NCBI GenBank assembly: GCA_042568575.1
Contig: JBHPIO010000002.1
Span: 65,447 to 129,446, forward strand
Length of the DNA: 64,000 nucleotides
Origin: Patescibacteria group bacterium
Lineage (GTDB): Bacteria; Patescibacteriota; Gracilibacteria; UBA1369; PNNO01
Reading direction: 5' to 3'
The position numbers and the translations under genes are program-made. The notes beneath the pieces are model-generated. The model saw only the letters and a program-made list of their open reading frames with translations, was not told the origin of the DNA and searched no databases. Positions 1-15,116 of the stretch are shown piece after piece; the first letter of the stretch is position 1, and every line of letters starts with the position of its first letter.

Positions 1-71
1 TAGTGAAGTTTTTCCCATGTTGCAATTTTGTTAATAAAACAATAGTACATTATAGCAAATTTTGACATTTT

Positions 72-219
72 GCACAACGTCCGCGGCTTGTACGAAGTTG
101 CCGACGAGCGAGATGGTATAATTTTAAACCATCAAAGCGAGGAAGGCAATTTGGGTGAAGGCTTTCGGCTGTGCGAAGCCAGTCCGAAAAAGCCTGAACC
201 GGACAAGCCGCTGTTGTAC
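72..219 (-). repeat. attC-like recombination site 1
   Basis: gcacAAC-gtcc-gcggcttgtacg ... cggacaagccgc-t-GTTgtac; internal hairpins; closely resembles site 8. Confidence 0.85.
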
Positions 220-235
220 GATGTAGCGAAAATTA

Positions 236-499
236 TTAAGAAGTTTTGCTTGGTTTCATCCATTTAATATAACCTCTTAAATACAGAAAAAATAAAACTA
301 TGGAAGTTACACCATTTGCTATACTTCCTATTTGAAAGCTAAATATAAAACCGACTATTCCTGATATCATTCCTACGACGAAACCAATTTTTTTCTTGTC
401 TCCAAGAAGAAAAATTCCTGCAAAAACCGTTAACGTGACTATCCAATCTACGCCATAATACTGGAAAGCATAATGTTTTATTTGTTCCAGAATTCCCAT
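236..499 (-). CDS. Cassette 1: small membrane protein (PnuC/nicotinamide-riboside-transporter-like, ~3 TM)
   Basis: 87 aa, hydrophobic, YYGVDW...GDKKK motif; fills the cassette between sites 1 and 2; family call is tentative. Confidence 0.7.
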   Translation of the reverse strand: MGILEQIKHYAFQYYGVDWIVTLTVFAGIFLLGDKKKIGFVVGMISGIVGFIFSFQIGSIANGVTSIVLFFLYLRGYIKWMKPSKTS

Positions 500-538
500 A
501 GTTTTATTTTATATGAATAATGAAATTTTCGCTATTTC

Positions 539-656
539 GTACAACGTCTGCAAACTATACGAACTTTGACAGTGATATAATACGCCAAAGGCGGATCACT
601 GGCAAAGTTGGGTGAAGCGAGTGAAAGGAGCGAAACCGAATAGTTTGCTGTTATAT
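539..656 (-). repeat. attC-like recombination site 2
   Basis: gtacAAC-gtct-gcaaactatacg ... cgaatagtttgc-t-GTTatat. Confidence 0.85.
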
Positions 657-679
657 GATGTCGTAAATTCCCGACTCTA

Positions 680-1117
680 TTAATCTGATAATGTTTTAGA
701 AAATTTTGTAGAAGCTTCTTGATAACCGAGACCTTTGTAGAAGTCGTGCGCCTCTGTTCGATCTTTTCTACTTGTGACTTCTATTTTAGTAGAGCCGACT
801 TTTGCTGCCTCTTCTTCGAGCTTTTTTACTAATGTTTTCCCAATACCTTGTCTTCTGTATTTTTCTTTGACTATTAAAGTAATTATTCGAGCAGTTTTGC
901 CAGTTTCGTATAAAAAGTTGGTGATTTGTAATTGAGCAACTCCTGCAATTTCTCCTTTGGTTTCAGCAATAATTAGAATTACTTCTGGATTGTCGGTTAG
1001 TGCCTCAATTTTGTTACGAGCAAAAGTCGGCGTGTTAGGATATCCAAATTCAATTAATAATTCTGCTACGCCTTCTGCATCTTTAATTGTTGCTTCTCTG
1101 TAATTGATATCTTCCAT
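680..1117 (-). CDS. Cassette 2: GNAT family N-acetyltransferase
   Basis: Acetyl-CoA motif V..YRRQGIGKTL and AHDFYKGLGY. Confidence 0.9.
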   Translation of the reverse strand: MEDINYREATIKDAEGVAELLIEFGYPNTPTFARNKIEALTDNPEVILIIAETKGEIAGVAQLQITNFLYETGKTARIITLIVKEKYRRQGIGKTLVKKLEEEAAKVGSTKIEVTSRKDRTEAHDFYKGLGYQEASTKFSKTLSD

Positions 1118-1137
1118 AAGATCGAATTTACGATTTC

Positions 1138-1253
1138 ATATAACGTCTAGCACTATGCGATGTTTGGCGATGGTAAAATATCACGAAGTGATACCATCGC
1201 CAAATATAGGTGTAGCGACTGAAAGGAGCGGAACCGAATAGTGCTTGTTGTGC
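1138..1253 (-). repeat. attC-like recombination site 3
   Basis: atatAAC-gtct-agcactatgcg ... cgaatagtgct-t-GTTgtgc. Confidence 0.85.
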
Positions 1254-1270
1254 GATGTGTTGTGCCCGAC

Positions 1271-1711
1271 TTACTTAATCTTCTTTATGTAATGTACGAT
1301 TACGTCGTCTTTTTTGAAACCTAAATTTTTGTGAAATTTCTGGCTATCAACGTTCCTTAACTCTGCGTCTGAGCCGAGCTCTTTGCATCCCTGTTTTTTG
1401 GCCCACTTTTCACCTTGTTCCACAAGCTCTTTGGCAACTCCTTGTTTTCTGTATTTGGGCTTTACATAAATGCCTTCAACATAGCCGACTGGACTAGATG
1501 ATGAACCTTGGACATAATCGTTGCGAAGCGAAAGATTGATGAAGCCCAAATACTCACCCTTTTCATTTTGGGCCAAAAAGTTTGTGTATCTATCTGACTT
1601 TGAAAGTGCCTGAAATTCTTTTTTGAGTGTTTTTTTAGCGTGTGGCCAAAGAGCGAGGCCCATTGATAGCCACTCATTAAAGTTGTCTTCAGAAATTTCA
1701 CAAAAATTCAT
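1271..1711 (-). CDS. Cassette 3: aminoglycoside 6'-N-acetyltransferase AAC(6')-I-like GNAT
   Basis: LWP, SLRNDYVQGSSSSPVGYVEGIYV, ELGSDAELRNVDSQKFH match the AAC(6')-Ic/Iy-type pattern. The ATG at 1711 is preferred because the track's GTG (1732) lies inside the cassette terminal repeat. Confidence 0.8.
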   Translation of the reverse strand: MNFCEISEDNFNEWLSMGLALWPHAKKTLKKEFQALSKSDRYTNFLAQNEKGEYLGFINLSLRNDYVQGSSSSPVGYVEGIYVKPKYRKQGVAKELVEQGEKWAKKQGCKELGSDAELRNVDSQKFHKNLGFKKDDVIVHYIKKIK

Positions 1712-1740
1712 AGTATTGATGATTAAGGGCACAACATTTC

Positions 1741-1858
1741 GTACAACGTTCGCAAACTATACGAACTTGCGACAGGTGTAGAATAGCCGAAGGCGGACAC
1801 CTGAGCAAGTTGGGTGAAGCGAGTGAAAGGAGCGGAACCGAATAGTTTGCTGTTAGGC
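1741..1858 (-). repeat. attC-like recombination site 4
   Basis: gtacAAC-gttc-gcaaactatacg ... cgaatagtttgc-t-GTTaggc (canonical GTTRRRY). Confidence 0.85.
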
Positions 1859-1866
1859 GATGTTAA

Positions 1867-2097
1867 TTATTTTTTCCATTTTGCATATGCCCTAGCATTC
1901 AATGCTATAAGTATTATATTTAAAATTACACCAGGCCATATATGACCCATATAATTTACAGCTATCCATGCGATGTTACCAACAGTGTATATAATAAATG
2001 AATATCTTTTTTTGCTACCAACAAGGAATAGAAAAATAAGTGAACCTGCCATCCCAATCCAATCTAGTCCGTAATAATTTCCCAATATTTCATTCAT
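1867..2097 (-). CDS. Cassette 4: small membrane protein, paralogue of cassette 1 protein
   Basis: 76 aa from ATG 2097 (MNEILGNYYGLDW...GSKKR); the track's upstream extension runs through site 5. Confidence 0.75.
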   Translation of the reverse strand: MNEILGNYYGLDWIGMAGSLIFLFLVGSKKRYSFIIYTVGNIAWIAVNYMGHIWPGVILNIILIALNARAYAKWKK

Positions 2098-2115
2098 ATA
2101 AAAATAATTAATGTT

Positions 2116-2243
2116 GCCTAACGGCCATGAATAACTGAAGTTTGGTGGCGGTATAATTTGGAGCGGAGCGACATACCACCGCCAAATTTGGGAGAACGAA
2201 CGAAGCAAAGCGGAGTGAGTGAACCAGTTATTCATTGTTATGT
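2116..2243 (-). repeat. attC-like recombination site 5
   Basis: gcctAAC-ggcc-atgaataactg ... cagttattcat-t-GTTatgt. Confidence 0.85.
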
Positions 2244-2258
2244 GATGTGACAATAGGG

Positions 2259-2897
2259 TCACTTTGTTAAATGCTCAATCGCTTTTTTCAGTTGTCCGCC
2301 AAAATCGTTGTCCATGTTGAGAGCTTTTAACTTGTACTTCTTTGCTTCTTTGTCAAAAAATTGTCCATAGTAGTTGATCATTTCCGCGATCTTGTTGAGA
2401 GTTTCTTTTTCTTTTGTTTTACGAAGAATCCAGTCGTTTGGAGTTGAACTTTTCTTAAAGTCACGAACCATTTTTTCAACATCAGACTTAAAGAGAAAAA
2501 GAACGCAGAAATGTTTACGTCCGTATTTTTTAATTAGCCGAGCTGCAAGTTGTGGCGTTACATGGTAGCCCTCGACAATATAATCATTGCCATCAGTAAT
2601 TTCGCAGACGGAAAACATATCTATTGCGTCATAGCTAGACTTGGCCTGCTTAATGTAATTATTAGCAATCTGCTTTGGAGTATTGAGTGAATATGTTTCG
2701 TCATTAGTTTTGCCCTTTTGAGCATTATGTGGATAGAGTTTATCCATTTCCGCTTTAGAAGCATATTTTGAAACATATTCACGCGCTACAACTTGCAGCG
2801 TATCAGAAGCAACCCACTGAATGCCGAGCTTCTTGGACAATTTTTTGGCAAGTGTGGTTTTACCACATTTTGGCGGACCGCCGATTAAATAGATCAT
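2259..2897 (-). CDS. Cassette 5: P-loop kinase (2-phosphoglycerate-kinase/AAA-like)
   Basis: N-terminal Walker A GGPPKCGKTT, IVEG Walker B-like motif. Confidence 0.8.
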   Translation of the reverse strand: MIYLIGGPPKCGKTTLAKKLSKKLGIQWVASDTLQVVAREYVSKYASKAEMDKLYPHNAQKGKTNDETYSLNTPKQIANNYIKQAKSSYDAIDMFSVCEITDGNDYIVEGYHVTPQLAARLIKKYGRKHFCVLFLFKSDVEKMVRDFKKSSTPNDWILRKTKEKETLNKIAEMINYYGQFFDKEAKKYKLKALNMDNDFGGQLKKAIEHLTK

Positions 2898-2930
2898 AGT
2901 TTTATTTTAGCAAGACCCTATTGTTATTTC

Positions 2931-3031
2931 ATATAACGTTCGGCGCATATACAAAGTTTACATGCAGCGTAGCGGAATGTAAATTTGGGTGGAGCGACGA
3001 AGGAGCGGAACTGAATATACGCCTGTTATAT
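2931..3031 (-). repeat. attC-like recombination site 6 (shortest)
   Basis: atatAAC-gttc-ggcgcatataca ... tgaatatacgcc-t-GTTatat. Confidence 0.8.
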
Positions 3032-3046
3032 GAAGCACATTTTTTC

Positions 3047-3105
3047 GTTTGGGGGCGGCGCAGAGGGGATGGGGGTGAATGCGCCGCCCCCAAACACCTT
3101 TTTCT
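3047..3105 (+). terminator. Strong GC hairpin (16-bp perfect stem) followed by a T-rich tract
   Basis: gtttgggggcggcgca (3047-3062) / tgcgccgcccccaaac (3080-3095), then acctttttct. Confidence 0.55.
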
Positions 3106-3144
3106 TGTTTTACCTATCTGTGATAAGATTGAAAAGCGTTTTGC

Positions 3145-3173
3145 TTGACAAAACAATTCTATTTATTTATAAT
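3145..3173 (+). promoter_or_regulatory. Consensus sigma70 promoter inside cassette 6
   Basis: TTGACA-17 bp-TATAAT, exact consensus. Confidence 0.85.
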
Positions 3174-3204
3174 TCGATACCATTTACTTTTTAACCGTTT
3201 TATA

Positions 3205-3675
3205 ATGGAAACACAACAAGGAAATTCTGCCGAACAATTAGAAGGAAAATCCACTCAGGAGCTCTTGGATGCACTATGCGAGGTTCAAAAAATCGAACCT
3301 ATATTACTAGATCGAGGTCGTGCTTTTTTGAGAGATGTTTTGAGTAAAGAGGAAAATTTCCCTACAGATAGATTAAATGACTGTCGCGTAAGAGTCGAAG
3401 TAAATGACGGTGGTGGTCTCGTTGTTAGAGTGCCGGTTAATCGATTTGAGGTTGATGGTAGTACTTTAGATGCTCATCCACTTAAACTTGAAATGAAGGA
3501 TCAATGGAGTAATTTGCCCGGAGTTGCTCGTGTGGAGACTGATGGTAGTATGAATAGTGGAATAATGAATTTAGATGTTTATCTTCAATCCGATCAATTA
3601 CCTGAGCAAGATTCATCGCAAGCAGTTGAAGAAGTGCAGGAGGTTGTAGGAAAAGGTCTTAGTCAAAGTGTATAG
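3205..3675 (+). CDS. Cassette 6: acidic hypothetical protein, inverted relative to the array
   Basis: 156 aa from ATG 3205 (METQQG...), downstream of its own promoter. Confidence 0.75.
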   Translation: METQQGNSAEQLEGKSTQELLDALCEVQKIEPILLDRGRAFLRDVLSKEENFPTDRLNDCRVRVEVNDGGGLVVRVPVNRFEVDGSTLDAHPLKLEMKDQWSNLPGVARVETDGSMNSGIMNLDVYLQSDQLPEQDSSQAVEEVQEVVGKGLSQSV

Positions 3676-3688
3676 TTTCAATGGTTTA

Positions 3689-3733
3689 ATAATAGAGATC
3701 GGGATTATTTTAATAACTCCGATCTTTTTATTA
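3689..3733. terminator. Hairpin downstream of cassette 6 gene
   Basis: agagatcggga...tccgatcttt stem with A/T-rich flanks. Confidence 0.5.
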
Positions 3734-3770
3734 TGCCCCCCTCTATCAATAAAGGGAAAAAATGTATTGC

Positions 3771-3893
3771 ATATAACGTTTCGGCATATACGATGTTTGC
3801 CAGTGGTATAATACCGCGAAGCGGTTACCACTGGCAAATATGAGCGAAACGACGACTGAAAGGAGGAGTGTAGCCGTATATGCCGTGTTAAGT
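3771..3893 (-). repeat. attC-like recombination site 7
   Basis: atatAAC-gttt-cggcatatacg ... cgtatatgccg-t-GTTaagt. Confidence 0.85.
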
Positions 3894-3903
3894 GATGTAA
3901 ATT

Positions 3904-4527
3904 TTATTTTTTCTTTGCTAATACCCACCAATGATATTCGTTATCGCCTGGCTGTCCTTCATATTCGCTTTCTGTGATTTCAAAACCAGCCTGAGCAATC
4001 ATTGCCTTATATTTTTCAGGTTCATAATTGCTCCATGCCATTGGTGCTCCGACAAAATCTTTTTCTATACTTACTTCACTACTTGTACCCAATGTTACTA
4101 AAATAACCCCATTATTCTCTAACAAATTATGCATTTTATCAAACAAGGCTTGATGTTCTTCGCGCGGAATATGAAAAATAGAGTAAAAGGCGATGATTGC
4201 GTGGAAACGCTTGCCGCCAAAATCCGTCTTTGAAAAATCACCTTCAATAAAAGTTGCATCTGGTACATTTTTCTTCGCTTCGACAATATGATTGGAGGCA
4301 AAATCTATGCCGGTTACTTCAAAGCCCTTTTCAACAAGGTACTTGTCGAAAGGGATTCCAATACCACAACCCAAATCAAGGACTTTGGCGGCCTTTGGCA
4401 AGAGAACTGCCAGGCGATTCAGATATTTCTTTTCCATTTCATTAGGGTCTGAACTTACGCGGAAATGTCCAGCGTAGTCGCCTTGTTCATAACCTTCTTT
4501 AACGATTTTACGAATATCATTGGTCAT
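3904..4527 (-). CDS. Cassette 7: class I SAM-dependent methyltransferase
   Basis: VLDLGCGIG motif I, GIDF, GDF motifs. Confidence 0.9.
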   Translation of the reverse strand: MTNDIRKIVKEGYEQGDYAGHFRVSSDPNEMEKKYLNRLAVLLPKAAKVLDLGCGIGIPFDKYLVEKGFEVTGIDFASNHIVEAKKNVPDATFIEGDFSKTDFGGKRFHAIIAFYSIFHIPREEHQALFDKMHNLLENNGVILVTLGTSSEVSIEKDFVGAPMAWSNYEPEKYKAMIAQAGFEITESEYEGQPGDNEYHWWVLAKKK

Positions 4528-4546
4528 AAAAAATAAAATTTATTTC

Positions 4547-4690
4547 ACTTAACGGTTGCAAACTATACGAACTTTTTCGCGATGGTATAATAGCGCTTTA
4601 GCGCAACCATTGCAAAAAAAGTTGGGTGAGGGCTTTTGGCTGTGCGAAGCCAGCCGAAAAAAGGCCGAACCGTATAGTTTGCTGTTGTGC
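4547..4690 (-). repeat. attC-like recombination site 8
   Basis: acttAAC-ggtt-gcaaactatacg ... cgtatagtttgc-t-GTTgtgc. Confidence 0.85.
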
Positions 4691-4761
4691 GCTGTTGCGA
4701 AATCAAAATTTACCCGAAGGGTAAATAGAAATTTTGGCGACTAAATTATTTTGTCTAATTC

Positions 4762-4992
4762 TTATTTTTTCGAGGCCATAAGTTCAGTAACTGTTAGTCT
4801 TGCTCTAACTAAATTCCGAATTGTTTCTTCTTCAGGCGTTAGTGTTCCTAAGTCAGCTTTATGGGCGAGAATACTTTGTATGGCACCGGGGAGTTGATCT
4901 TCTCTGCCATCAGCAGTTTCTCTGGCTTTTCCATAACCATCTTTGTACCATCCAAAATTGCCAGATTCGGTTGGACCACCTACAGTAGCCAT
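4762..4992 (-). CDS. Cassette 8 (attI-proximal): hypothetical protein
   Basis: 76 aa ORF inside the cassette, preceded by a candidate promoter. Confidence 0.65.
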   Translation of the reverse strand: MATVGGPTESGNFGWYKDGYGKARETADGREDQLPGAIQSILAHKADLGTLTPEEETIRNLVRARLTVTELMASKK

Positions 4993-5020
4993 ATAATGTT
5001 TGATTATGAATTAAGACTAT

Positions 5021-5048
5021 ATTTTAGCAGAAGAATATTAATATGCAA
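5021..5048 (-). promoter_or_regulatory. Candidate promoter in cassette 8 pointing into the array
   Basis: Minus strand TTGCAT-16 bp-TAAAAT with extended -10 TG. Confidence 0.5.
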
Positions 5049-5089
5049 TATTTGTCGCCAAAATTTCTGTTCTTTTTTTTCGCAATGGC

Positions 5090-5126
5090 GTACAACTCAG
5101 CACTAAGCGTAGTTTACTATAGTTTA
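5090..5126 (-). other. attI-like primary recombination site
   Basis: Last gtacAAC of the array, followed by tc-agcactaagcg (like the left arm of site 3). It has no partner arm, carries a TAGTTTA direct repeat, and is adjacent to the recombinase start. Confidence 0.7.
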
Positions 5127-5188
5127 GAAGAATTTTAGAGTTTTTTTACAATGTTTTGGTACGTTCTGTGCGTATTTTAAGTTTTTTT

Positions 5189-6010
5189 ATGAGCCTTAAA
5201 AGCCAGTTACTGCTTAGGATGGAGCGCGAGATGATTATTAAGAATTATAGCCCCAGGACACAGAAAACCTATATGTACTGTATTGAGAAGTATTTGGAGT
5301 TTGATTTTGGGGCTGTGCGCAGGTGTGGTTTGGATAAAATTCGGGAATTTCTTGTGTTGAAGCAGGAAAGTGGCGTTGGTCCTGTTATGAGGAATTTGTA
5401 TCTTTGTGCCATTAAGTTTTTCTATCGAAGCGCACTGAATCGCCGTAAAACAATACCTATTCCGTATGCTAAACGACCAAAAAGCACGCCTATAACGCTA
5501 ACGCGCGTAGAGGTACTTCAGATGCTGTCCTACATTAACAATTACAAGCATAAATTGATCGTGGCATTGGCTTATGGAGCGGGTTTGAGACTCAGTGAGG
5601 TTACAAGTCTGAAAGTTTATGACATTCATTTACTTGATAAGACAATTCTTGTTAGAAGAGGGAAGGGCGCGAAACGGCGATATACGATTATTCCGGATAA
5701 ACTATGGTGGAAACTCCGTCTTTATGTGAAAAACAGGGATGCGCACAAGTATGTTTTTGAGAGTAATAGGGGAGGAAAGTTACATTCACGCACTGTTCAA
5801 AAGATTTTCAAAAAAGCTCTCAAGAAAGCCGGCATTGAAAAACAAGCCACGTTTCATTCGCTCAGGCATAGTTTTGCTACGCATTTGCTCGAAAATGGAA
5901 CAAATCTGCGATATGTGCAGGCGTTGCTTGGGCATTCAAGTATTAGAACAACTCAAATTTATACTCATGTTGATGATTGCGCAATTAAGACTGTCAAAAG
6001 CCCACTTTAA
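5189..6010 (+). CDS. Tyrosine recombinase, integron-integrase-like (N-terminal SAM-like domain, no IntI-specific insertion)
   Basis: NYSPRTQKTY N-domain; catalytic R (GLRLSE), K (GKGAK), HSLRH, LGH, Y (TQIYTH); C-terminal KSPL as in IntI-type enzymes. Confidence 0.92.
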   Translation: MSLKSQLLLRMEREMIIKNYSPRTQKTYMYCIEKYLEFDFGAVRRCGLDKIREFLVLKQESGVGPVMRNLYLCAIKFFYRSALNRRKTIPIPYAKRPKSTPITLTRVEVLQMLSYINNYKHKLIVALAYGAGLRLSEVTSLKVYDIHLLDKTILVRRGKGAKRRYTIIPDKLWWKLRLYVKNRDAHKYVFESNRGGKLHSRTVQKIFKKALKKAGIEKQATFHSLRHSFATHLLENGTNLRYVQALLGHSSIRTTQIYTHVDDCAIKTVKSPL

Positions 6011-6075: not shown

Positions 6076-6570
6076 ATGACAAGACGTCGCCCATCTGAGG
6101 GAGAAAAAGACCTGATTCAACGAGGATTAGTTGTATTAAAAGAAATCTATGAGCATCCTGAAAGTGCTAATGTCCATAGCGCGAGAGGTAGAATACTATC
6201 AAGAGTATTACTTGTAATGAATGGTCAGACAGTAGGTGATTTATACAGATTGATGGTTGTTGCAAGTTATCAGCCTACTGATGCGGACGCAATTTTAACA
6301 GCTTTAAATAGCAGTACTGGATTGCGCGAATTTGAACAATATTTGTTGGATTGCGATTCTGACGATCTGCGAGCGACTATTTTAAAAACATTTCCAACTC
6401 AAGAATCAAAGCAAGCGGCATTGGAATATTTAACTGCTGATGAAGATGGCAGAATTAGATTTCACCACAAAGGATACCTTGTTACAGAAGAACAACTTGC
6501 ATACTTAAACGAACTCTTGAGTTCAAGAGATTTACAAGAAGTACTTGAAATTCTATACAAACAAATTTAA
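6076..6570 (+). CDS. Hypothetical protein
   Basis: 164 aa ORF with TTGACA (6023) upstream; no recognisable motif. Confidence 0.65.
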   Translation: MTRRRPSEGEKDLIQRGLVVLKEIYEHPESANVHSARGRILSRVLLVMNGQTVGDLYRLMVVASYQPTDADAILTALNSSTGLREFEQYLLDCDSDDLRATILKTFPTQESKQAALEYLTADEDGRIRFHHKGYLVTEEQLAYLNELLSSRDLQEVLEILYKQI

Positions 6571-7190
6571 GTCTCCTCCATACTAGCCTTAATTCTCATC
6601 ACACCAGTGATTGCGCTTCGTTCTGCTTCGCTAAGTTTCATCGAAATGAACTTAACAGTCTCCTGGAGGTTTGGTAGGAGCATGTGTTCGAGAGCGTTTA
6701 CACGACGACGAGTCTTTTCAGTTTCTTCAGCGAGACGTTCTGCCTGACGTTCGATTTCAGCAAGTTGAATCAAGAGTGGAAGCACTTCCTGGAAGGCCTC
6801 AAGAGCCATATCAAGCTCTCCACTTGTTTGAAGGTATCCATAGTTCAAAATGTTTCCTTTCTGCTTTAACGTGAAGTTTGGGATGCGTACGCTCATCACG
6901 TTTTTTGTCTCAACTTCCAGCGATACTTCAGCGGAAGGGTAGAGGAGTGCATTCTCAAGAACTTCTGGATACATCATTGCTGATGCTTGCATAAAGTTCT
7001 TGAATGCTCCCTGCAATTTCTCTTCAACTTTCTTTCGAAGATCTCGTGCCTCACGGATGATTTCCATAAATTTCTGCATCAATCCGTCCTGTTTGTCTCG
7101 TAGCAGCTTGTGTCCCCTTTGAGCAGTTTTAATCTGCTTCTTAAGGTTCAGAAGCTCCATTCGAGTTGGATTGACATTTAGTTTTGCCAT
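6567..7190 (-). CDS. ntpD: V/A-type ATP synthase subunit D
   Basis: NVNPTRMEL, RGHKLLRDK, KTRRRVNALEH. Confidence 0.95.
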   Translation of the reverse strand: MAKLNVNPTRMELLNLKKQIKTAQRGHKLLRDKQDGLMQKFMEIIREARDLRKKVEEKLQGAFKNFMQASAMMYPEVLENALLYPSAEVSLEVETKNVMSVRIPNFTLKQKGNILNYGYLQTSGELDMALEAFQEVLPLLIQLAEIERQAERLAEETEKTRRRVNALEHMLLPNLQETVKFISMKLSEAERSAITGVMRIKASMEET

Positions 7191-7211
7191 ATCTTAGGGT
7201 CGTTTAAATTA

Positions 7212-8708
7212 TTATGATGAGAATTCAGCTTTTGCTTCTTCTTCAGTTGCGCTCTGTTCTTCTTCAGGCACCTCTTCCTTTGCAGGCATTTCTTCTTTTG
7301 CATCTTCTCCCATGTATTTAGCAATGTGTTCTTCTTTCACACGCTTTAATTCGTTTTTTGGAAGGAGCTTTAGAAGTTCCCATCCCATTGTAAGAGATTT
7401 GATAATGTCGCGATCTTCGTTTTCACTTTGACGAACATATTTATCTTCAAATTCATTTGCGAATTTCAAGAATGCAAGATCTGCATCACTTAGAGCCGCT
7501 TCACCAAGAATTACCGCAAGCTCACGAACTTCTTTTCCTCTAGCGTAAGCTGCAAAGAGCTGGTTCATCACACCTGAATGGTCTTCACGAGTTTTTCCAG
7601 GTCCGATACCTTTATCTTTCAAACGAGAAAGTGAAGGAAGTACGTTGATGTTTGGGTAAATACCTTGAGAGTGAAGGTCACGCGCTAGCACGATCTGTCC
7701 CTCTGTAATATATCCTGTAAGATCAGGAATTGGATGAGTGATATCGTCTTCCGGCATAGTTAGAATAGGAATCTGTGTGATTGAACCTTCTTTACCTTTT
7801 ACACGTCCAGCTCGTTCGTATAGAGTCGCTAGATCCGTATATAGGTAACCTGGATAACCACGTCGTCCTGGAACCTCTTTACGAGCTGCAGATACTTCAC
7901 GTAGCGCTTCACAATAGTTTGTAAGGTCAGTAAGGATTACAAGTACGTGCATTCCTTTTTCAAAAGCAAGATACTCAGCTGTTGTAAGTGCCATACGTGG
8001 AGTCGCAATTCTTTCTACTACTGGATCGTCCGCTGTATTGATGTAAAGAACAGATCGTTCGATAGCACCTGTCTTTTTGAATTCGTTTGTGAAGTATTCC
8101 GCTTCTTCAAATGTCACACCCATCGCTGCAAATACTACCGCGAAGTTTTCATCATTACCGCCACCTTCTTTAATATTCCCTTCATCATCTACTTTCACTA
8201 CTTTCGCCTGACGAGCAATTTGTGCAGCTAAACGTGCATGTGGAAGACCAGCTCCAGAGAAAATAGGAAGCTTTTGTCCACGTACAAGTGTGTTCATGGC
8301 ATCAATTGTAGAGATTCCTGTTTGATAGAAATCGTTCGGATAATCACGCGCATTTGGATTTAGCGGGTTTCCGTTAATGTCGATTTTCTTTTCAGGAATG
8401 ATTTCAGCTCCACCATCAATCGGGCGGCCCCGTCCATCAAAGATGCGTCCGAGCATGTCCTTAGACACTCCAAGCTGAAGACTCTTTCCTAGGAATCTAG
8501 CCTTAGATCCAGCTGCTCCAAGTCCCTGTGAACTTTCGAACATCTGAGCGATGGCCATTCCTTCTCTAGCTTCAAGTACTTTTCCAAGACGTACGTCTCC
8601 ACTTGCAGTTGTAATCTCTACAAGCTCTTCATACTTGATGTCCTCAACGCCTTCGATCATTACGAGCGGTCCGGCGATGGACTTTATTGTTTTATATTCT
8701 TTTTGCAT
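7212..8708 (-). CDS. ntpB: V/A-type ATP synthase subunit B
   Basis: [38 protein letters not shown]. Confidence 0.97.
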
Positions 8709-8733
8709 TGTCTATAAGAGTTAATTTAATAAA

Positions 8734-10497
8734 TTATTTTTGAAGCGACATAATCTCACGCTCTGTATCTTCCCAAAGCTTCTTGAATTCATCTTCTTTG
8801 TCAGCGCCGATGTTCTTACATTTAGTTACTCGTTCCATTACAGGAAGTGCTAGTAAATCATCGAAGTTGAAGTCTTCATGATCAATAACTTTTGATGCAT
8901 GATGAGCGACGTTCAAGATTGATTTAAGCATCCAGTATTGCTTTTTAAGCGGTGTGAAAGCATCAACTTTATCAAAAGCGTTTTGGAACAGGAAGTCTTC
9001 ACGAAGTGATTTCGCAGTTTCCAAAGTTAGACGTTCTTTTGGAGAAAGTGCTTCCATTCCAACTAGACGTACGATTTCTTCAAGTTTTGCTTCTTCTTGT
9101 AGGATACTCATTGCCTCGGTTCTGTATTCTCCAAAATCTTCAGCAATTTCGTTCTTCCAGTAGTCTTTAATGTTGTCGTTATAAAGTGTGTATGAGGAAA
9201 GCCAGTTAATAGCCGGGAAGTGACGTCTGTAAGCAAGTTTTGCGTCTAGTCCCCAGAATACTTTTGTAACACGTAGAGTGTTTTGAGTTACCGGTTCCGA
9301 AAGATCTCCACCTGGAGGCGATACCGCTCCGATAAGTGTTAGACTTCCTTCACGATCATCATCTTCTCCAAGACATTTAACGTTTCCAGATCTTTCATAG
9401 AACTGAGCAGTTCGAGAACCAAGGTAAGCAGGATATCCTTCTTCACCTGGCATCTCTTCTAGACGTCCTGACATTTCACGCAACGCTTCCGCCCAACGAG
9501 ATGTTGAGTCAGCCATAAGCGCTACATCGTATCCCATATCACGGTAATACTCAGCGATTGTTACTCCTGTGTAGATAGAAGCTTCACGAGCCGCTACCGG
9601 CATGTTAGAAGTGTTAGCTACCATCACAGTACGTTTCATAAGTTTTTCTCCAGTGTTTGGATCTTCCAGTTCCGGGAATTCCATAAGTACATCAGTCATC
9701 TCGTTACCACGCTCTCCACATCCGATATAAACGATAATTTCCGCATCACAATATTTAGCAAGTGTTTGCTGTGTTACAGTTTTTCCAGCTCCGAATGGTC
9801 CAGGAATACATCCTGCTCCACCTTTTGCGAGTGGGAAAAGTGTATCTAGAATTCGAGTTCCTGATACAAGTGGTTTACTTGGAATAGATTTATCTCTCAC
9901 TGGTCTTGGGTTTCGGATAGACCATTTTTGTAGCATTGCAATCTCATGATCTTTTCCTTCTGCGTCTGTAATTACAGCGATTATATCTTCGATTGTGTGT
10001 GATCCACTCTTAATTTCTTTAACGCTTCCAGAGATTGTTGGAGGTACCATCACTTTGTGCATAATAAGTGATGTTTCTTGAACTTCTCCTAGGATATCTC
10101 CTTCAGTCACGTTTTCACCTTTGCTCTTTATCGCTTTAAAATCCCATGTCTTTTTTCTATCAAGTCCAGGTACATCAAGACCACGAGTGATGTAATCACC
10201 TGCTTCTTTTTGAAGAAGAGGGAGAGGACGTTGGATTCCATCATAAATAGATTGAAGGAGTCCAGGCCCGAGCTCAACCTGCATAGTTTGACCTGTAGGG
10301 TAAACAGGTTCTCCAGGTCCAACTCCACCAGTTTCTTCATATACCTGAATTGAAGCTTGGTCGCCTTCAATTCCGATGATTTCACCGATAAGTTTTTTAT
10401 CAGATACACGTACTACTTCGTACATGCGTGCTCCCTCCATTCCTTTTGCAACGACAAGAGGTCCTGATACTTTTATAATTGTTCCTTGTTTTTCCAT
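8734..10497 (-). CDS. ntpA: V/A-type ATP synthase subunit A
   Basis: P-loop [28 protein letters not shown]. Confidence 0.97.
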
Positions 10498-10531
10498 ATT
10501 CTTATGTTATTAAGTGAATATATATGAGTTG

Positions 10532-10894
10532 TTATCCTCCAAATATGTCTGAACCAACAGCCTGTTCAACCATTTTCTTGATTCTTTCAAGTCCGTATCC
10601 TTTAGTTCCTCGAATTCCAGGAATAGGAATGATTGCAGGTAATGCTTCTTTAGTTAGTTTTTTGTAATCTTCTTTTGTAATTTGAGTCGCAAGATCTTCA
10701 AGTATAAAAATAATTGCGTATTTTTTTCGTGTTTCTCCTTCGCCAAGATCAATTACTTCGCTATTTAATTTGAATAGTGCTTCGCGAGCTTCTTCACCAT
10801 TGTTCGCGATAGTTGCAGTTACACCGAGTGCTTTAAACCCGAGAATTTGGTCTTTACTACCAACGATTGCTATTTTGTATGAGTCTTTGTTCAT
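10532..10894 (-). CDS. V/A-type ATP synthase subunit F
   Basis: KIAIVG..ILGFKALGV, PAIIPIPG, VEQAVGSDI. Confidence 0.9.
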   Translation of the reverse strand: MNKDSYKIAIVGSKDQILGFKALGVTATIANNGEEAREALFKLNSEVIDLGEGETRKKYAIIFILEDLATQITKEDYKKLTKEALPAIIPIPGIRGTKGYGLERIKKMVEQAVGSDIFGG

Positions 10895-10895
10895 A

Positions 10896-11921
10896 TTAAT
10901 AAAGGGTTCTGATTAATTGTCTAATTTGTTCTGGATCGATGTCGTTTAATTTGCTTACCATAATGCTTCTAATAACTAGAGCATTGTTCTTTTTTGCCCA
11001 GAAATAAGCGAATACCGGCTCAGGCCCGATTGCTATTCTCTTTGCTCTTTGAATATAGTCTGTTAAGTGGTCGTATGTAAGTTTGTCCAATTTTACGAAT
11101 GATTTCTCCTCTTCATATCCTTTGATTGCATCACGAATAATGTTTGCATAGTCAGTGTGACGCATGCTTTCAGCAAAATCGCTAACATCTTTTCTGAACG
11201 CATCAAGGAATCTGTATTTTTCCAGAGTTCCTCTGCAGATGAATCCTTTTTCAAGAAGCTCTTCTTCTCTCTTTTGGATTTTTAGACGAATGAATAGTTC
11301 AATATTTTTAAGGTCGATATATTTTTTTGTGAGTGTGATTAGGAACTCGTTCCCACTCTTTACAGCAATTTCGTTAATGATTTTGCAGAATCTTTTATCA
11401 AGAACGATATCTATTAGTTGTGGATCTTCAGATTTTAAGTAATCTGTTTCTGCAAGTTTAATGCTTTCTTTAAGGTATTTCTCGTATCTTTCTTCAAGTC
11501 CAAACCCTGCGTCTTCTCCGTCTAGAATGTATTTTTTAAGTTGAACGAGTTCGATTGCACCAAAATGAAAACAGTAATCTTTAACTTCATCAAACTCTTT
11601 TCCAGAGTGTTTTGCTTTTAGAAGTACTTTCATATTGTGGAAATCGTATCTGAACCAAAGGATGTTAAACACCCAGTTGCTTGGAGCGATTCTTTTAATT
11701 AACTCTTTTGTATCTTTAAGACCTGAATTAATTACATCCTGAAAATTTTCTACCTTCTCAATATCTCCAATGTGAGTTGAGTAATCTGTTTCATTCAAGA
11801 TTTTGTATGCGTCCACCGCGTCTTTTGCGAGAACCATTCGTTCGAGCTCGTTTTCATTAAGGAGTTTTGTCTCCAGAACTCTTATCCATGATACTGATTG
11901 TGCGAAACTTGTTGAGTCCAT
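10896..11921 (-). CDS. ntpC: V/A-type ATP synthase subunit C (d)
   Basis: IRVLETKLL, YDFHNMKVLLK, GPEPVFAY; operon position. Confidence 0.9.
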   Translation of the reverse strand: MDSTSFAQSVSWIRVLETKLLNENELERMVLAKDAVDAYKILNETDYSTHIGDIEKVENFQDVINSGLKDTKELIKRIAPSNWVFNILWFRYDFHNMKVLLKAKHSGKEFDEVKDYCFHFGAIELVQLKKYILDGEDAGFGLEERYEKYLKESIKLAETDYLKSEDPQLIDIVLDKRFCKIINEIAVKSGNEFLITLTKKYIDLKNIELFIRLKIQKREEELLEKGFICRGTLEKYRFLDAFRKDVSDFAESMRHTDYANIIRDAIKGYEEEKSFVKLDKLTYDHLTDYIQRAKRIAIGPEPVFAYFWAKKNNALVIRSIMVSKLNDIDPEQIRQLIRTLY

Positions 11922-11932
11922 TTATAGTTTAA

Positions 11933-12502
11933 TTAAGCGGAAAATATAGTTTGTGCAACTTCTAGTTCAAGATCGTCACGAAGTTGTTTGTTTAGAATTG
12001 ATTCAAATGAATTGTCGATTTCGATTTTCTCTGACACCAAAATGAAACCACCTTTTATGTCAGTGCTTTTGTCTGACATTTGGAATGATTTCCCAGATGC
12101 AGAAAGAGCGGCTCTTGTAGCGTCTTCTTTTCCTTTTGCTGGAACAACTTTCACGTCGTCACCTTTAATTGCAGAATGTTTTAGTAATTCTGTTAAGAGC
12201 TTTTCGTAGTTAGAAGAAGATACTAGTGCTTCTAGTGCTTCATCAAAAATTGCGTCCATAACTTCACGTTTTTCTTTAAGAAGCTTGTTCTTAGCCTCCA
12301 TCTTTGCGTGTGTTGCCATTTTGTTCAGAATTTTTTCGCTGTTAGCTGTAACTTGTCCGTCCATTTCTTCTTGCGCGTTTTTCATCATCTTTTCAAATTC
12401 TGCTTCAAGTTTTTTTACAGTTTCAGCATGTTCTTTGCTCATTTTATCAAGCTTTTCTTGAGTCTCTTTTTTGATTTGTTCAAGGATGTCGTTTAAAGCC
12501 AT
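11933..12502 (-). CDS. ntpE: V/A-type ATP synthase subunit E
   Basis: Coiled-coil N-terminus, IKGGFIL...IDNSFE. Confidence 0.9.
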   Translation of the reverse strand: MALNDILEQIKKETQEKLDKMSKEHAETVKKLEAEFEKMMKNAQEEMDGQVTANSEKILNKMATHAKMEAKNKLLKEKREVMDAIFDEALEALVSSSNYEKLLTELLKHSAIKGDDVKVVPAKGKEDATRAALSASGKSFQMSDKSTDIKGGFILVSEKIEIDNSFESILNKQLRDDLELEVAQTIFSA

Positions 12503-12586
12503 ATTTCTAAAGTGTTATTGTTAATTATTAACTTTTGGGATCCCCGCGATGATTTTGCAACCGCGGGAATTTTCAAAAAACAATAA

Positions 12587-13072
12587 TTATCCTACTTGTA
12601 TTCCAAAGATAAGAAGTACTGAAACTAGAAGTCCAAGTACCGCATATGTTTCTACCATCGCTGACATGATCACCGCTTTACCTGTGTTAGTCGCGTCTTT
12701 TGCTACTGCGTTAAGTCCCGCAGCAGATACTTTTCCTTGGTGAATTCCTGAGAATAGACCAGCAAGTCCAACTGGGATTCCAGCTCCGAAGAACTGCCAT
12801 CCTGTTGAAAGGCTGATTTCTGCCGCAGATCCTCCAATAAGTCCGATTTGGATTAGAATTAGAAGTGCACCTAGGAATCCGTAGATACCTTGTGTTCCTG
12901 GAAGCGCCTGTAGAAGAAGGATCTTACCAAAAAGTTCTGGTTTTTCACTGATCACACCAGTTCCTGATTGACCAGCTAGTCCAACCCCGATACTTGATCC
13001 AATGCCTCCTAGAGCAGCTGCTACTGCTGCACCGAGCACTGCTAGTGCGAGTCCTGTTTCAATTCCGAACAT
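12587..13072 (-). CDS. ntpK: V/A-type ATP synthase subunit K (c), 4-TM, Na+-type signature
   Basis: LPGTQGIYG, HQGKV, MVETYAVL as in Enterococcus hirae NtpK. Confidence 0.95.
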   Translation of the reverse strand: MFGIETGLALAVLGAAVAAALGGIGSSIGVGLAGQSGTGVISEKPELFGKILLLQALPGTQGIYGFLGALLILIQIGLIGGSAAEISLSTGWQFFGAGIPVGLAGLFSGIHQGKVSAAGLNAVAKDATNTGKAVIMSAMVETYAVLGLLVSVLLIFGIQVG

Positions 13073-13112
13073 ATTTTTTAGTTGTTAAAGAATTAAATAT
13101 GTAAAATATAAA

Positions 13113-15116
13113 TTATTTTTTCTCTGTGATAAGTATGTATTTGCAAGCTTTCTGCAAAGGTTTAAACGCTTTTCCTCCACCTTCCATAAATTTCCCGAAG
13201 AACTCAACGAACTGAAGACGACTTGAGTGGATAAACGCTCCAAGTGTCGAGATCGCTATATTCAAAGTGTGTCCGATTAAAATAACAATGATTGCGAATA
13301 CAATTCCTATATAAGGTATGCTTCCCACTAACCCAGCAATTGTATTAAATGCAAATCCAATAATTCCTGTTCCGAGCCCAAGAGCCATCAAACGTGAGTA
13401 TGAAAGTACGTCGGCGAAGTATCCAACTAGTCCGTATAGAGAAAGGACACCTGTTAAGAATTTCAAAATAATATTCTTTTGTTTTCTTCCTTGCGTAAGA
13501 ATAAGTGCTCCAACTCCGAAGTAAACAAGATACGTAATTGCTCCTGCATATTCCGGAAGGAAGATTCCTCCTTTACTTAATCCGAATAGACCCATGATTA
13601 TCAAGAAGTAGAACCAAAGGAAGCTATCGAATAATGCGTCTATATATTTTCCGTGTTTAATTTTCCAGTATCCATCAACAAGAACTCCGAATAGAACTTG
13701 AACGTATCCAAGAACTGCAGCAAGCATTAGGAATGTTAAAGGTCCACTTCCCTTAGTTGGGTTGATTATCTGCCATCTAAATGCCATTTCACCAGATTCG
13801 TCTACGTATGTTAGGAATCCAGGTGCTTGGTCTGCTGTCATTCCAAACCATCCACCGAATAGCGCTCCCAATATAAATGTAACGATTCCACCAAACATCA
13901 AAAGTTTCACTAAGTTCTTCATTCCGGCAGGAATCTTCAAGAATTTGAGTGCAAGGGCGCATATTACAAATAGAACGATTCCATATCCTGCGTCAGTCAA
14001 ACATAATCCAAAGAAGATAATGAAGAATGCTGCCAAGAATGGTGTTGGATCGATTTCACTTGGGAGCGGAAGTCCGTAAATGTTTGTTACCGCTTCAAAT
14101 GATCCAATCAAACCTTTGTTTTTAATTGCAACCGGTGCCTGTTCTTCTTCCGTCGGTTCGATTTCAAAAATTTCAAATGCGTTTGTTACTTTTTCAAGCC
14201 TTTCGTTGATTTTTTTAAGATTCTTTAAAGGAACCCATCCTTCTAACGTAAAGCTGGATTTAGTATTATAAGCTTTTTGTTCAGAATACATTTTATCTCT
14301 TTCCCAAACAAAATAGTCGTGAACAATCTGAAGATCTTCGTTTTTCTTTGCCAAAACCTTTAATTCTTCTTCTTGATTAGCAAGATCTTGTTCGATTTCA
14401 GATTTTCTTTCCTTAATCTCTTTTAATTCCGTTTTTACATCGTGTTTTCGTGATGGCAGGTCAACTTCACTTAATTTATGCATCATGAAAACCTCTTTAA
14501 CTTGAGGTTCAACTTCTTTTGCAAAAGTTAGCGCAACGTAAGTTGTGCTTTCGTCTTCGTTAATTTTATCTACATTAAGTAGTTTTGAAACTTTTTTAAT
14601 ATCTTCAACAAATTCTGCATATGCAGTTTTTTGAATAGTTCCAAGGATGGTTTTTGTTCTTTCAGTTTCGCCAATATGATCAAGTGGCATTGAAAGTGAT
14701 TGCCATGCCCCAAGTTCTTCTTGCGACATTTGAAGTGCGGCAAGTTCATTCCTTAAAGCAACCATAGTTTCTTCAACTGTGCGACACTGTTTAATAATAG
14801 TATCGAAGTTGAATTCTTTTGCTTTCTTTTTAACGTCATCGATAGTTAAAACAAGCGGACCTTGGATTAGGTTCCGGTGTTTTGCGTAAGGCTTGATAAG
14901 TTTTAGAGCGAAATCGATATTTGCAATATTAAGCTCTACTGAATGTAGCGCCTCCATTTGTTCTGGTGATTGATTGATTAGTTCTCTTTCCTCTGCTTTT
15001 TCATCTATAATTTCTGTGATTTCCAAAGCCCCTAATGACTGCAACGAGTCCAACAACTTCTGTTTATGACTTCCAGAAGCTACTAATTTGATTTTTTGCA
15101 TTGAAATGACCGCCAT
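13113..15116 (-). CDS. ntpI: V/A-type ATP synthase subunit I (a)
   Basis: EIDPTP, DVLSYSRLMALG, HSSRLQFVEFFGKF. Confidence 0.95.
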   Translation of the reverse strand: MAVISMQKIKLVASGSHKQKLLDSLQSLGALEITEIIDEKAEERELINQSPEQMEALHSVELNIANIDFALKLIKPYAKHRNLIQGPLVLTIDDVKKKAKEFNFDTIIKQCRTVEETMVALRNELAALQMSQEELGAWQSLSMPLDHIGETERTKTILGTIQKTAYAEFVEDIKKVSKLLNVDKINEDESTTYVALTFAKEVEPQVKEVFMMHKLSEVDLPSRKHDVKTELKEIKERKSEIEQDLANQEEELKVLAKKNEDLQIVHDYFVWERDKMYSEQKAYNTKSSFTLEGWVPLKNLKKINERLEKVTNAFEIFEIEPTEEEQAPVAIKNKGLIGSFEAVTNIYGLPLPSEIDPTPFLAAFFIIFFGLCLTDAGYGIVLFVICALALKFLKIPAGMKNLVKLLMFGGIVTFILGALFGGWFGMTADQAPGFLTYVDESGEMAFRWQIINPTKGSGPLTFLMLAAVLGYVQVLFGVLVDGYWKIKHGKYIDALFDSFLWFYFLIIMGLFGLSKGGIFLPEYAGAITYLVYFGVGALILTQGRKQKNIILKFLTGVLSLYGLVGYFADVLSYSRLMALGLGTGIIGFAFNTIAGLVGSIPYIGIVFAIIVILIGHTLNIAISTLGAFIHSSRLQFVEFFGKFMEGGGKAFKPLQKACKYILITEKK

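Follow-up and report, generated by a model that had tools for sequence, protein, structure and literature searches.

Bacterial integrons, such as the sedentary chromosomal integrons of Vibrio, combine an integrase gene and an adjacent attI site with a divergent array of short, mostly one-gene cassettes that share one orientation, can be duplicated within the array, and carry GNAT, AAC(6'), isochorismatase and HIT proteins along with many proteins of unknown function. Their sites have inverse AAC...GTT cores with crossover at G|TT, and the canonical attC geometry includes a symmetric unpaired central spacer and conserved extrahelical L-box bases, which are read by the I2 helix of the integrase IntI. 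In other systems (the pdif modules of Acinetobacter plasmids and the single-stranded attP of CTX phage), recombinases without I2 handle gene modules or folded DNA. In the current account of integron evolution (Escudero et al. 2020, PMC7790495), gain of the I2 alpha-helix is what took IntI from recombining double-stranded DNA to recombining single strands, and Ghaly et al. (2022, PMC9668308) treat the additional domain as defining for IntI. Here we describe an array of attC-like sites and the short recombinase gene beside it, in a 64-kb stretch of DNA (hereafter the window; G000:C12:65447–129446) from a genome of 1.2 Mb in 31 contigs (82% completeness). We consider it likely that the locus is a sedentary chromosomal integron-type cassette platform of Peribacteria/Peregrinibacteria (Patescibacteria), with its own recombinase as the catalyst and without I2.

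The locus resembles bacterial integrons in its divergent layout with an attI-like site beside the recombinase, in its short, co-oriented and duplicated cassettes, in its AAC/GTT cores and in its cargo. It differs from them in a recombinase without the IntI additional domain, whose scores fall short of the cut-offs of the IntI models, in sites that fold as three-way junctions with a 4/1-nt spacer, include a conserved unpaired module and show no conserved extrahelical bases, and in its host. The initial annotation had placed this host among genomes of the Candidate Phyla Radiation (CPR) type, correctly, as its closest relatives are Candidatus Peribacteria/Peregrinibacteria ('Patescibacteria group'). 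Integron platforms outside the classical bacterial hosts have also been described from archaea, likewise from metagenome-assembled genomes (MAGs) and mostly fragmented; according to Ghaly et al. (2022), archaeal attCs fold like bacterial ones and archaeal IntIs carry the IntI-specific additional domain, unlike the CPR recombinase. Our literature search found no description of integrons or attC arrays in CPR, Patescibacteria or Peregrinibacteria, although it did not cover the supplementary tables of IntegronFinder-based surveys, where CPR CALINs (clusters of attC sites lacking an integrase) might be listed, and the main text of the IntegronFinder 2.0 paper (PMC9024848) does not mention Patescibacteria.

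Array, folded sites and cassette exchange

The array holds 11 attC-like sites by site profile, eight at window positions 61–4709 and three further upstream on the contig (C12:64007–65234). It runs with its 11 cassettes from the attI-like junction (window 5094–5096) to C12:64027, and all 11 sites lie on the minus strand directly upstream of the plus-strand recombinase gene, in divergent layout. Each site, of 101–148 nt across the array (the eight of the window were also measured at 113–168 nt), closes one short, mostly one-gene cassette. A covariance model of the sites (R1) recovered exactly eight in the window at E ≤ 0.01 and nothing further. The integron layout proposed in the initial annotation, a recombinase with an attI-like half-site and at least eight sites, is borne out in every element; its eight window sites and cassettes stand, while the array itself begins beyond the first base of the window. 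The annotation had named genome-wide scattering of the sites as an outcome that would speak against it. What we found was one array and, elsewhere in the genome, three weak profile matches confined to contig C1. There, at C1:52500–54450 (L143 2062–3930), half-sites and weak sites (28.9–34.8 bits) form a decayed second cluster among small open reading frames (ORFs); distant from any recombinase, it looks like fossil cassettes. Over the whole window, Rfam at gathering thresholds matched no known RNA family and ARAGORN reported no tRNA or tmRNA.

Read in cassette orientation, the sites follow the pattern ACATCnnnyAAC-A-[L'']...[L']-RRM-CGTT-nnnnG(A/C)(A/C)AT, with AACA and CGTT invariant or nearly so across 74 sites. 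Under DNA parameters the more stable fold is that of the bottom strand (the plus strand of the window) in all 11 sites. In the fold, an R box of AAC/GTT extended to ~7 bp is followed by two conserved mismatches, an asymmetric spacer (4 nt facing 1 nt) and a 9–11-bp L box; above the L box, a variable hairpin meets a conserved module (top strand GGTTCCGCTCC...TCGCTTCACCCAA) in a three-way junction. This geometry agrees with the earlier description of the sites as non-canonical. The module, ~30 nt long and without a partner strand, separates the L box from the hairpin (for example, the complement of window 597–640); in sites s1 and s8 it is enlarged into a genuine hairpin.

We measured covariation in the 74 sites, which come from seven genomes, in an alignment fitted to the model structure. 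Paired cells made up 92.0% of the total, compared with 65.3% in shuffles (0 of 500 reached the observed value) and 26–43% when partners were slid. The L-box helix was 98.7% paired, with both sides changing in 11 of 11 pairs, and the hairpin helices were 82–92% paired, even as the sequence itself was not conserved in either the L-box or the hairpin stems. G-U pairs and single-sided changes were almost absent from the stems, which fits selection on DNA pairing. At the level of comparative sequence analysis, these data show stem pairing to be under selection. The single internal position of the L box was mismatched in 39 of the 74 sites and paired in 35, and the L box therefore has no conserved extrahelical base.

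The variable hairpin retains a motif, TATTATACC on the top strand and TGGTATAAT on the bottom strand (for example, at window 577–605, 3808–3837 and 4587–4616). A perfect extended -10 element (TGnTATAAT) occurs on the bottom strand of 36 of the 74 sites, and a sense TTGnnn-17/18-TATTAT pair scoring at least 9/12 in 35 of the 74, against 5 of 74 in antisense and 8.6 in shuffles. A promoter may be present in every site; alternatively, the motif may form a loop to which a protein binds.

Cassette ends retain a record of joining. In reverse complement, R'' agrees at 90 of 121 positions with the GTT flank where its own cassette begins, compared with only 51 of 121 for R' of the same site, and in 10 of 11 cassettes none of the others in the set of 12 GTT flanks outscores the cassette's own. 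Circular cassettes cut and joined at G|TT leave such a pattern. A repeat search further showed that inverted repeats of 20–26 nt surround every cassette in the window.

Duplicated cassettes point to the same core. In the complete genome of a relative, G006, both breakpoints of the c2/c24 duplicates fall at CGTT, as do the left breakpoint of the c14/c26 copies and the right breakpoint of the c12/c18 copies; in G048, the c1/c6 copies end at CGTT and have their left breakpoint at the AAC of the preceding site. The first cassette of G006, at attI, is a 786-nt, 99.4% identical copy of cassette 27 with GTT on either side. An isochorismatase cassette common to G006 and G015, which belong to different families, encodes proteins of 94% identity, and the recombinases of these genomes are each ~50% identical to that of the window. 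Similarity between the window's genome and G001, of the same genus and with an 83% identical recombinase, extends as far as the attI GTT; past this point the sequences are unrelated. No homologue of the window genome's cassette ORFs was found at E ≤ 1e-5 among 57 cassette ORFs of six other arrays. In 18 of 23 loci a comparable attI-like junction, judged by eye, is seen at a distance of 75–230 nt from where the recombinase gene starts; an exact 34-nt attI pattern matched 0 stretches in metagenome contigs.

Comparison of these arrays shows cassettes to have been exchanged at the AAC/GTT core, with the crossover position as read from cassette boundaries and duplications, and it shows attI, by the same kind of reading, to be a target for insertion. 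The proposal of an integron-like cassette system is upheld by the end complementarity, the CGTT-bounded duplicates (one of them at attI) and the change of content from the attI GTT onwards between congeneric genomes.

A short recombinase and its distribution

The recombinase contains the Pfam domains PF00589 (1.8e-44) and PF13495. It passes the XerA model NF040815 marginally (221 versus a cut-off of 220), and the genome's XerD-like protein, encoded by a separate gene on contig C6, scores 230.7 with the same model. Against the integron integrase model TIGR02249 it scores 195.5 (cut-off 265), in two stretches that skip model positions ~183–236, and against PRK15417 130 (cut-off 435). When it is aligned with VchIntIA (2a3v), residues 5–196 correspond to chain positions 3–199 and residues 197–273 to 241–317, leaving chain positions 200–240 (~41 residues) unmatched. 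In an alignment with IntI1 and a canonical Desulfuromonadales-type IntI, the catalytic residues R134, K159, H223, R226, H249 and Y258 are kept and invariant, and the IntI1 stretch ALERKYP...W.W...DPRSG..RRHH is absent. An AlphaFold2 (AF2) model (pLDDT 88.6) depicts a two-domain recombinase with ~19 residues between helices 170–180 and 200–213, the place of the extra segment in IntI. All 28 sampled orthologues, of 270–334 aa, are likewise without the IntI segment. As the initial annotation had claimed, the alignments and models show a recombinase without the IntI-specific insertion (I2/additional domain).

In length, two-domain fold and catalytic motifs the protein resembles the XerA/XerC/XerD resolvases (PDB 4a8e, 5hxy, 1a0p). 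XerA provides its best PDB sequence matches (2.2e-39 and 4.1e-38), and the best structure matches of the AF2 model are XerA (5hxy) and VchIntIA (2a3v, TMq 0.70). It differs from Xer resolvases in an IntI-like N-terminal ...LRNYS..T..Y motif and a ...KSPL C-terminus, where the sampled Xer proteins end otherwise, in a patchy presence (36 of 61 relatives and 24 of 151 phylum genomes) unlike that of a near-universal housekeeping gene, and in its position beside cassette arrays and not at a single dif site (no dif search was made).

In a phylogenetic tree of 60 rows, built with a careful search after 5 of 65 were dropped as truncated or duplicate, we included 18 Xer/XerA rows as the outgroup, among them the genome's own XerD-like protein. 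The IntIs came from one plasmid and one order; none of the five genomes first searched for canonical IntIs held one, and they were found by an order-wide search around G061. Supports are given as UFBoot/SH-aLRT. The CPR clade (28 short recombinases and a 324-aa protein of G049) received 94/96, the canonical IntI clade of 13 rows 100/99, and the grouping of IntI with CPR against the 18 Xer/XerA rows 91/87. In this tree, a check that the annotation had called for, the CPR recombinases stand beside IntI, apart from the sampled Xer/XerA rows and the genome's XerD-like protein.

The G049 protein (L040 1339–2313, G049:C73) has an insertion of ~45 aa exactly at the place of the IntI additional domain, without IntI motifs. 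We rejected it as a canonical IntI: it lacks ALERKYP, W..W and DPRSG..RRHH, scores 231.8 against the TIGR02249 cut-off of 265, and nests in the short clade. The insertion could be an independent gain or a remnant. At six loci (L052, L053, L054, L116, L119 and L124; Absconditabacterales/SR1 and some 'Peribacteria' records), the homologues are interrupted by stops under table 11, for which an alternative genetic code is the likely explanation.

We surveyed 61 relatives from the same order and a phylum-wide set of 151 genomes from 131 genera, calling the recombinase at E ≤ 1e-40 and the sites by R1. Among the relatives, 36 had the recombinase and 44 had sites (both, 30; recombinase only, 6; sites only, 14; neither, 11). 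Across the phylum set the corresponding numbers were 24 and 31 (both, 18; recombinase only, 6; sites only, 13; neither, 114). The co-occurrence search of CPR genomes with a site covariance model, suggested at the outset, thus finds sites and recombinase together in 30 of 61 relatives and 18 of 151 phylum genomes. Among the latter, leaving aside the window's own genome, 10 of 17 have both adjacent and divergent on one contig (for example, G281, G161, G156 and G240), and in 10 of 10 loci of the order with both, the recombinase has the sites on its upstream side, on the strand opposite its own. The complete genome G006 has 34 sites in one block (C1:1183957–1208474) directly upstream of its recombinase (1182395–1183201). 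In many of the relatives with the recombinase, the contig ends a few hundred bases or less from the gene on its upstream side, as expected if variable repeat arrays break assemblies there. The TIGR02249 cut-off was reached in 0 of 61 relatives and 0 of 151 phylum genomes; the same search of a control order reached it in 43 of 81.

We rejected the view that the ~270-aa family always accompanies an array, as the complete genome G013 has the gene with no upstream repeats and no R1 match. A tRNA-like sequence, judged by eye with no tRNA search run, lies upstream of its recombinase homologue (C1, ~860.3 kb; L021/L026).

Cassettes, cargo and neighbouring genes

The eight cassettes of the window measure, from GTT to GTT and counted away from attI, 543, 776, 840, 815, 375, 603, 599 and 467 nt, the same range (375–840) as first reported. 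Their contents (Table 1) include the cargo already recognized as typical of cassettes: two GNATs, one of them of AAC(6') group E, an S-adenosylmethionine (SAM)-dependent methyltransferase and a P-loop kinase-like protein. For cassette 5 we took the ATG at 2097 as the start, since a 131-aa version of the ORF passes through site s5.

Table 1. Recombinase, attI-like site, attC-like sites and cassette ORFs of the array, in window coordinates
Feature	Position	Strand	Remarks
Recombinase, 273 aa	5189–6010	+	contains RLYVKNRDAHKYVFESNRGGKLHSRTVQKIF
attI-like site	5077–5130 (half-site 5077–5096)	-	between array and recombinase; conserved left part ...AAACTACGCTTAGTGCTGA then GTT; junction GTT is the complement of 5094–5096
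Cassette 1 ORF, 76 aa	4762–4992	-	no family match
Site s8 (cassette 1)	4536–4709	-	R1 105.2 bits
Cassette 2 ORF, SAM-dependent methyltransferase, 207 aa	3904–4527	-	Pfam Methyltransf_25/23/11
Site s7 (cassette 2)	3760–3909	-	R1 120.3 bits
Cassette 3 ORF, 156 aa	3205–3675	+	reverse orientation; no family match
Site s6 (cassette 3)	2920–3049	-	R1 116.6 bits
Cassette 4 ORF, P-loop kinase-like, 212 aa	2259–2897	-	weak Pfam AAA_18/AAA_33 and weak NCBIfam kinase matches
Site s5 (cassette 4)	2105–2259	-	R1 93.7 bits
Cassette 5 ORF, membrane protein, 76 aa	1867–2097	-	weak resemblance to PnuC C-terminus
Site s4 (cassette 5)	1730–1874	-	R1 127.2 bits
Cassette 6 ORF, GNAT, AAC(6') group E type	1271–1732	-	NF043067 160.4 bits (cut-off 140); activity predicted
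Site s3 (cassette 6)	1127–1271	-	R1 131 bits
Cassette 7 ORF, GNAT acetyltransferase, 145 aa	680–1117	-	Pfam PF00583
Site s2 (cassette 7)	528–672	-	R1 144.7 bits
Cassette 8 ORF, PnuC-like N-terminal fragment, 87 aa	236–499	-	scores below cut-offs
Site s1 (cassette 8)	61–236	-	R1 86.7 bits
Cassette 9, start	1–60	-	three further cassettes upstream of the window, to C12:64007

The reverse-oriented cassette 3 has its own promoter-like site, a 12/12 consensus TTGACA-17-TATAAT starting at 3145; just upstream, beside site s6, lies a perfect 16-bp GC-rich hairpin (3047–3095).

Across seven arrays we counted 79 site-to-site units with a median length of 616 nt (range 222–2784). In 50 of them the ORF is in sense orientation and in 16 in antisense, and the other 13 are without an ORF of at least 40 aa. 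Besides the proteins named above, the cargo of the arrays compared includes PnuC-like fragments, HIT and isochorismatase proteins, an MFS transporter, an N6 DNA methylase, HNH and Macro proteins, an APH-type phosphotransferase, DUF4256 and many proteins without a family match. The APH-family phosphotransferase, whose function is predicted, is a cassette of G019 (L033 2893–3759).

On its other side the recombinase adjoins a V/A-type ATPase operon (window 6567–15116; subunits D, B and A, with further subunits judged by ORF size). The recombinase gene lies beside the V/A-type ATPase B gene in this genome and in four of the five relatives searched (G001, G003, G006 and G007); in the fifth, G010, the two are on different contigs.

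Proposed mechanism, alternatives and meaning

Conserved adjacency, orientation and co-occurrence point to the neighbouring recombinase as the probable enzyme acting on the sites. We infer that the substrate is single-stranded, and likewise which strand is used. In the mechanism we propose, the recombinase would bind a folded single strand through the R box (...AAC/GTT...) and the covarying 9–11-bp L box and would cleave at the invariant AAC/GTT core. Cassettes would be excised by recombination of attC with attC and reinserted at attI, in the fashion of IntI, with resolution presumably replicative as in integrons. The reaction would proceed without the I2/additional domain of IntI, on sites without the conserved extrahelical bases that this domain reads; the asymmetric 4/1 bulge and the three-way junction may take the place of both in strand choice. 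The probable function is integron-like, yet two defining features of integrons, the IntI additional domain and the canonical attC geometry, are missing.

An ordinary integron, with a normal IntI and ordinary attC sites, could present the same AAC/GTT cores, divergent layout, attI, typical cargo, IntI-like N-terminus and SPL tail. We find this scarcely credible in the face of the TIGR02249 score (195.5 versus 265, in two stretches) and the PRK15417 score (130 versus 435), the lack of any counterpart to VchIntIA chain 200–240 and to the IntI1 ALERKYP...DPRSG..RRHH segment, the same lack in 28 of 28 sampled orthologues, and sites with a 1/4-nt spacer whose internal L-box position is mismatched in 39 of 74 cases and paired in 35. 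It is just as improbable that the sites have no part in recombination and are structured repeats between genes (REP- or terminator-like, or an RNA element), with a Xer gene nearby by coincidence. They do follow ORFs, fold stably and in many cases hold promoter-like motifs; terminators, however, would not be expected to show complementary cassette ends and exact CGTT breakpoints, within the genome they are restricted to a single array (the 34 sites of G006 form one block), the covarying stems are nearly free of G-U pairs, and Rfam returned no match.

More serious, though still unlikely in our estimate, is a reading in which the array is left over as a CALIN-like relic, or is acted on in trans by a different recombinase (the genome's XerD-like enzyme or a canonical IntI from elsewhere), and the short recombinase beside it serves some other purpose, for instance resolving dimers or inverting DNA. 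Among classical integrons, CALINs are frequent and open to action in trans. In favour of this reading, 14 of 61 relatives and 13 of 151 phylum genomes have sites but no recombinase, six genomes of each set have the recombinase but no sites, and the protein just passes the XerA model. Against it stand the adjacency and fixed relative orientation, seen at all 10 loci of the order and in 10 of the 17 phylum genomes with both, the attI-like junction conserved at 75–230 nt from the start of the recombinase gene (18 of 23 loci), and the duplicated cassette of G006 that sits exactly at this junction. No canonical IntI turned up in either set (0 of 61 and 0 of 151), and a separate XerD-like gene exists, with the short gene too patchy to fit a housekeeping role. 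The main mechanistic alternative, to which we assign a lower probability still, keeps the platform and the enzyme and has double-stranded sites undergo a conventional Xer-type reaction with exchange of two strands. In keeping with this alternative, the I2 helix with which IntI handles folded attC is missing from the enzyme, which resembles XerA in sequence and fold. Intrastrand pairing is, in turn, under strong apparent selection (L box 98.7% paired, 11 of 11 pairs compensatory; hairpins 82–92%), and XerCD can use the folded single-stranded site of CTX phage, so I2 is no general requirement for hairpin substrates. The pdif and CTX systems are alike in handling gene modules or folded single-stranded DNA without I2; they differ in having dif-like sites and neither an attI-anchored tandem array nor a dedicated adjacent recombinase.

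Several observations weigh against the cassette-platform reading that we prefer. The recombinase is without sites in 6 of the 36 relatives that have it, the complete genome G013 included, and sites are present in 14 of the 25 relatives without it; incomplete MAGs may explain part of this, and another enzyme acting in trans would do so too. Related genomes are not independent, so the cross-tables overstate significance, the MAGs are incomplete, and what the tables show is association, not rate. By its NF040815 score the recombinase is as much a relative of Xer as of IntI, and support for the CPR clade as the sister of IntI is moderate, with limited sampling. Fitting the 74-site alignment to the model structure may bias the pair counts towards that structure. 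The conserved unpaired module and the TGGTATAAT motif have no role in the proposed model.

On balance we still favour an integron-type platform run by its own I2-less recombinase. We lean, more cautiously, towards the broader view that Patescibacteria hold an ancient, phylum-wide integron lineage of their own, with an integrase that is the sister of IntI and either never had the I2/additional domain or lost it, and with three-way-junction attC sites without extrahelical bases. If this is true, a large bacterial radiation running arrays with an I2-less relative of IntI would amount to a natural experiment on the I2 step. Cassette recombination on folded DNA would be independent of the I2 innovation, and integron-type gene capture may predate I2. 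Tools that require the IntI-specific segment may score such platforms as arrays without an integrase, or miss them. A promoter in each site, if present, may make the cassettes self-expressing. Their predicted cargo of note comprises an AAC(6')-type acetyltransferase, an APH-type phosphotransferase, a DNA methylase, HNH proteins and many proteins of unknown function, and the platform would provide a route of gene gain and loss in the otherwise very reduced CPR genomes of ~1 Mb.

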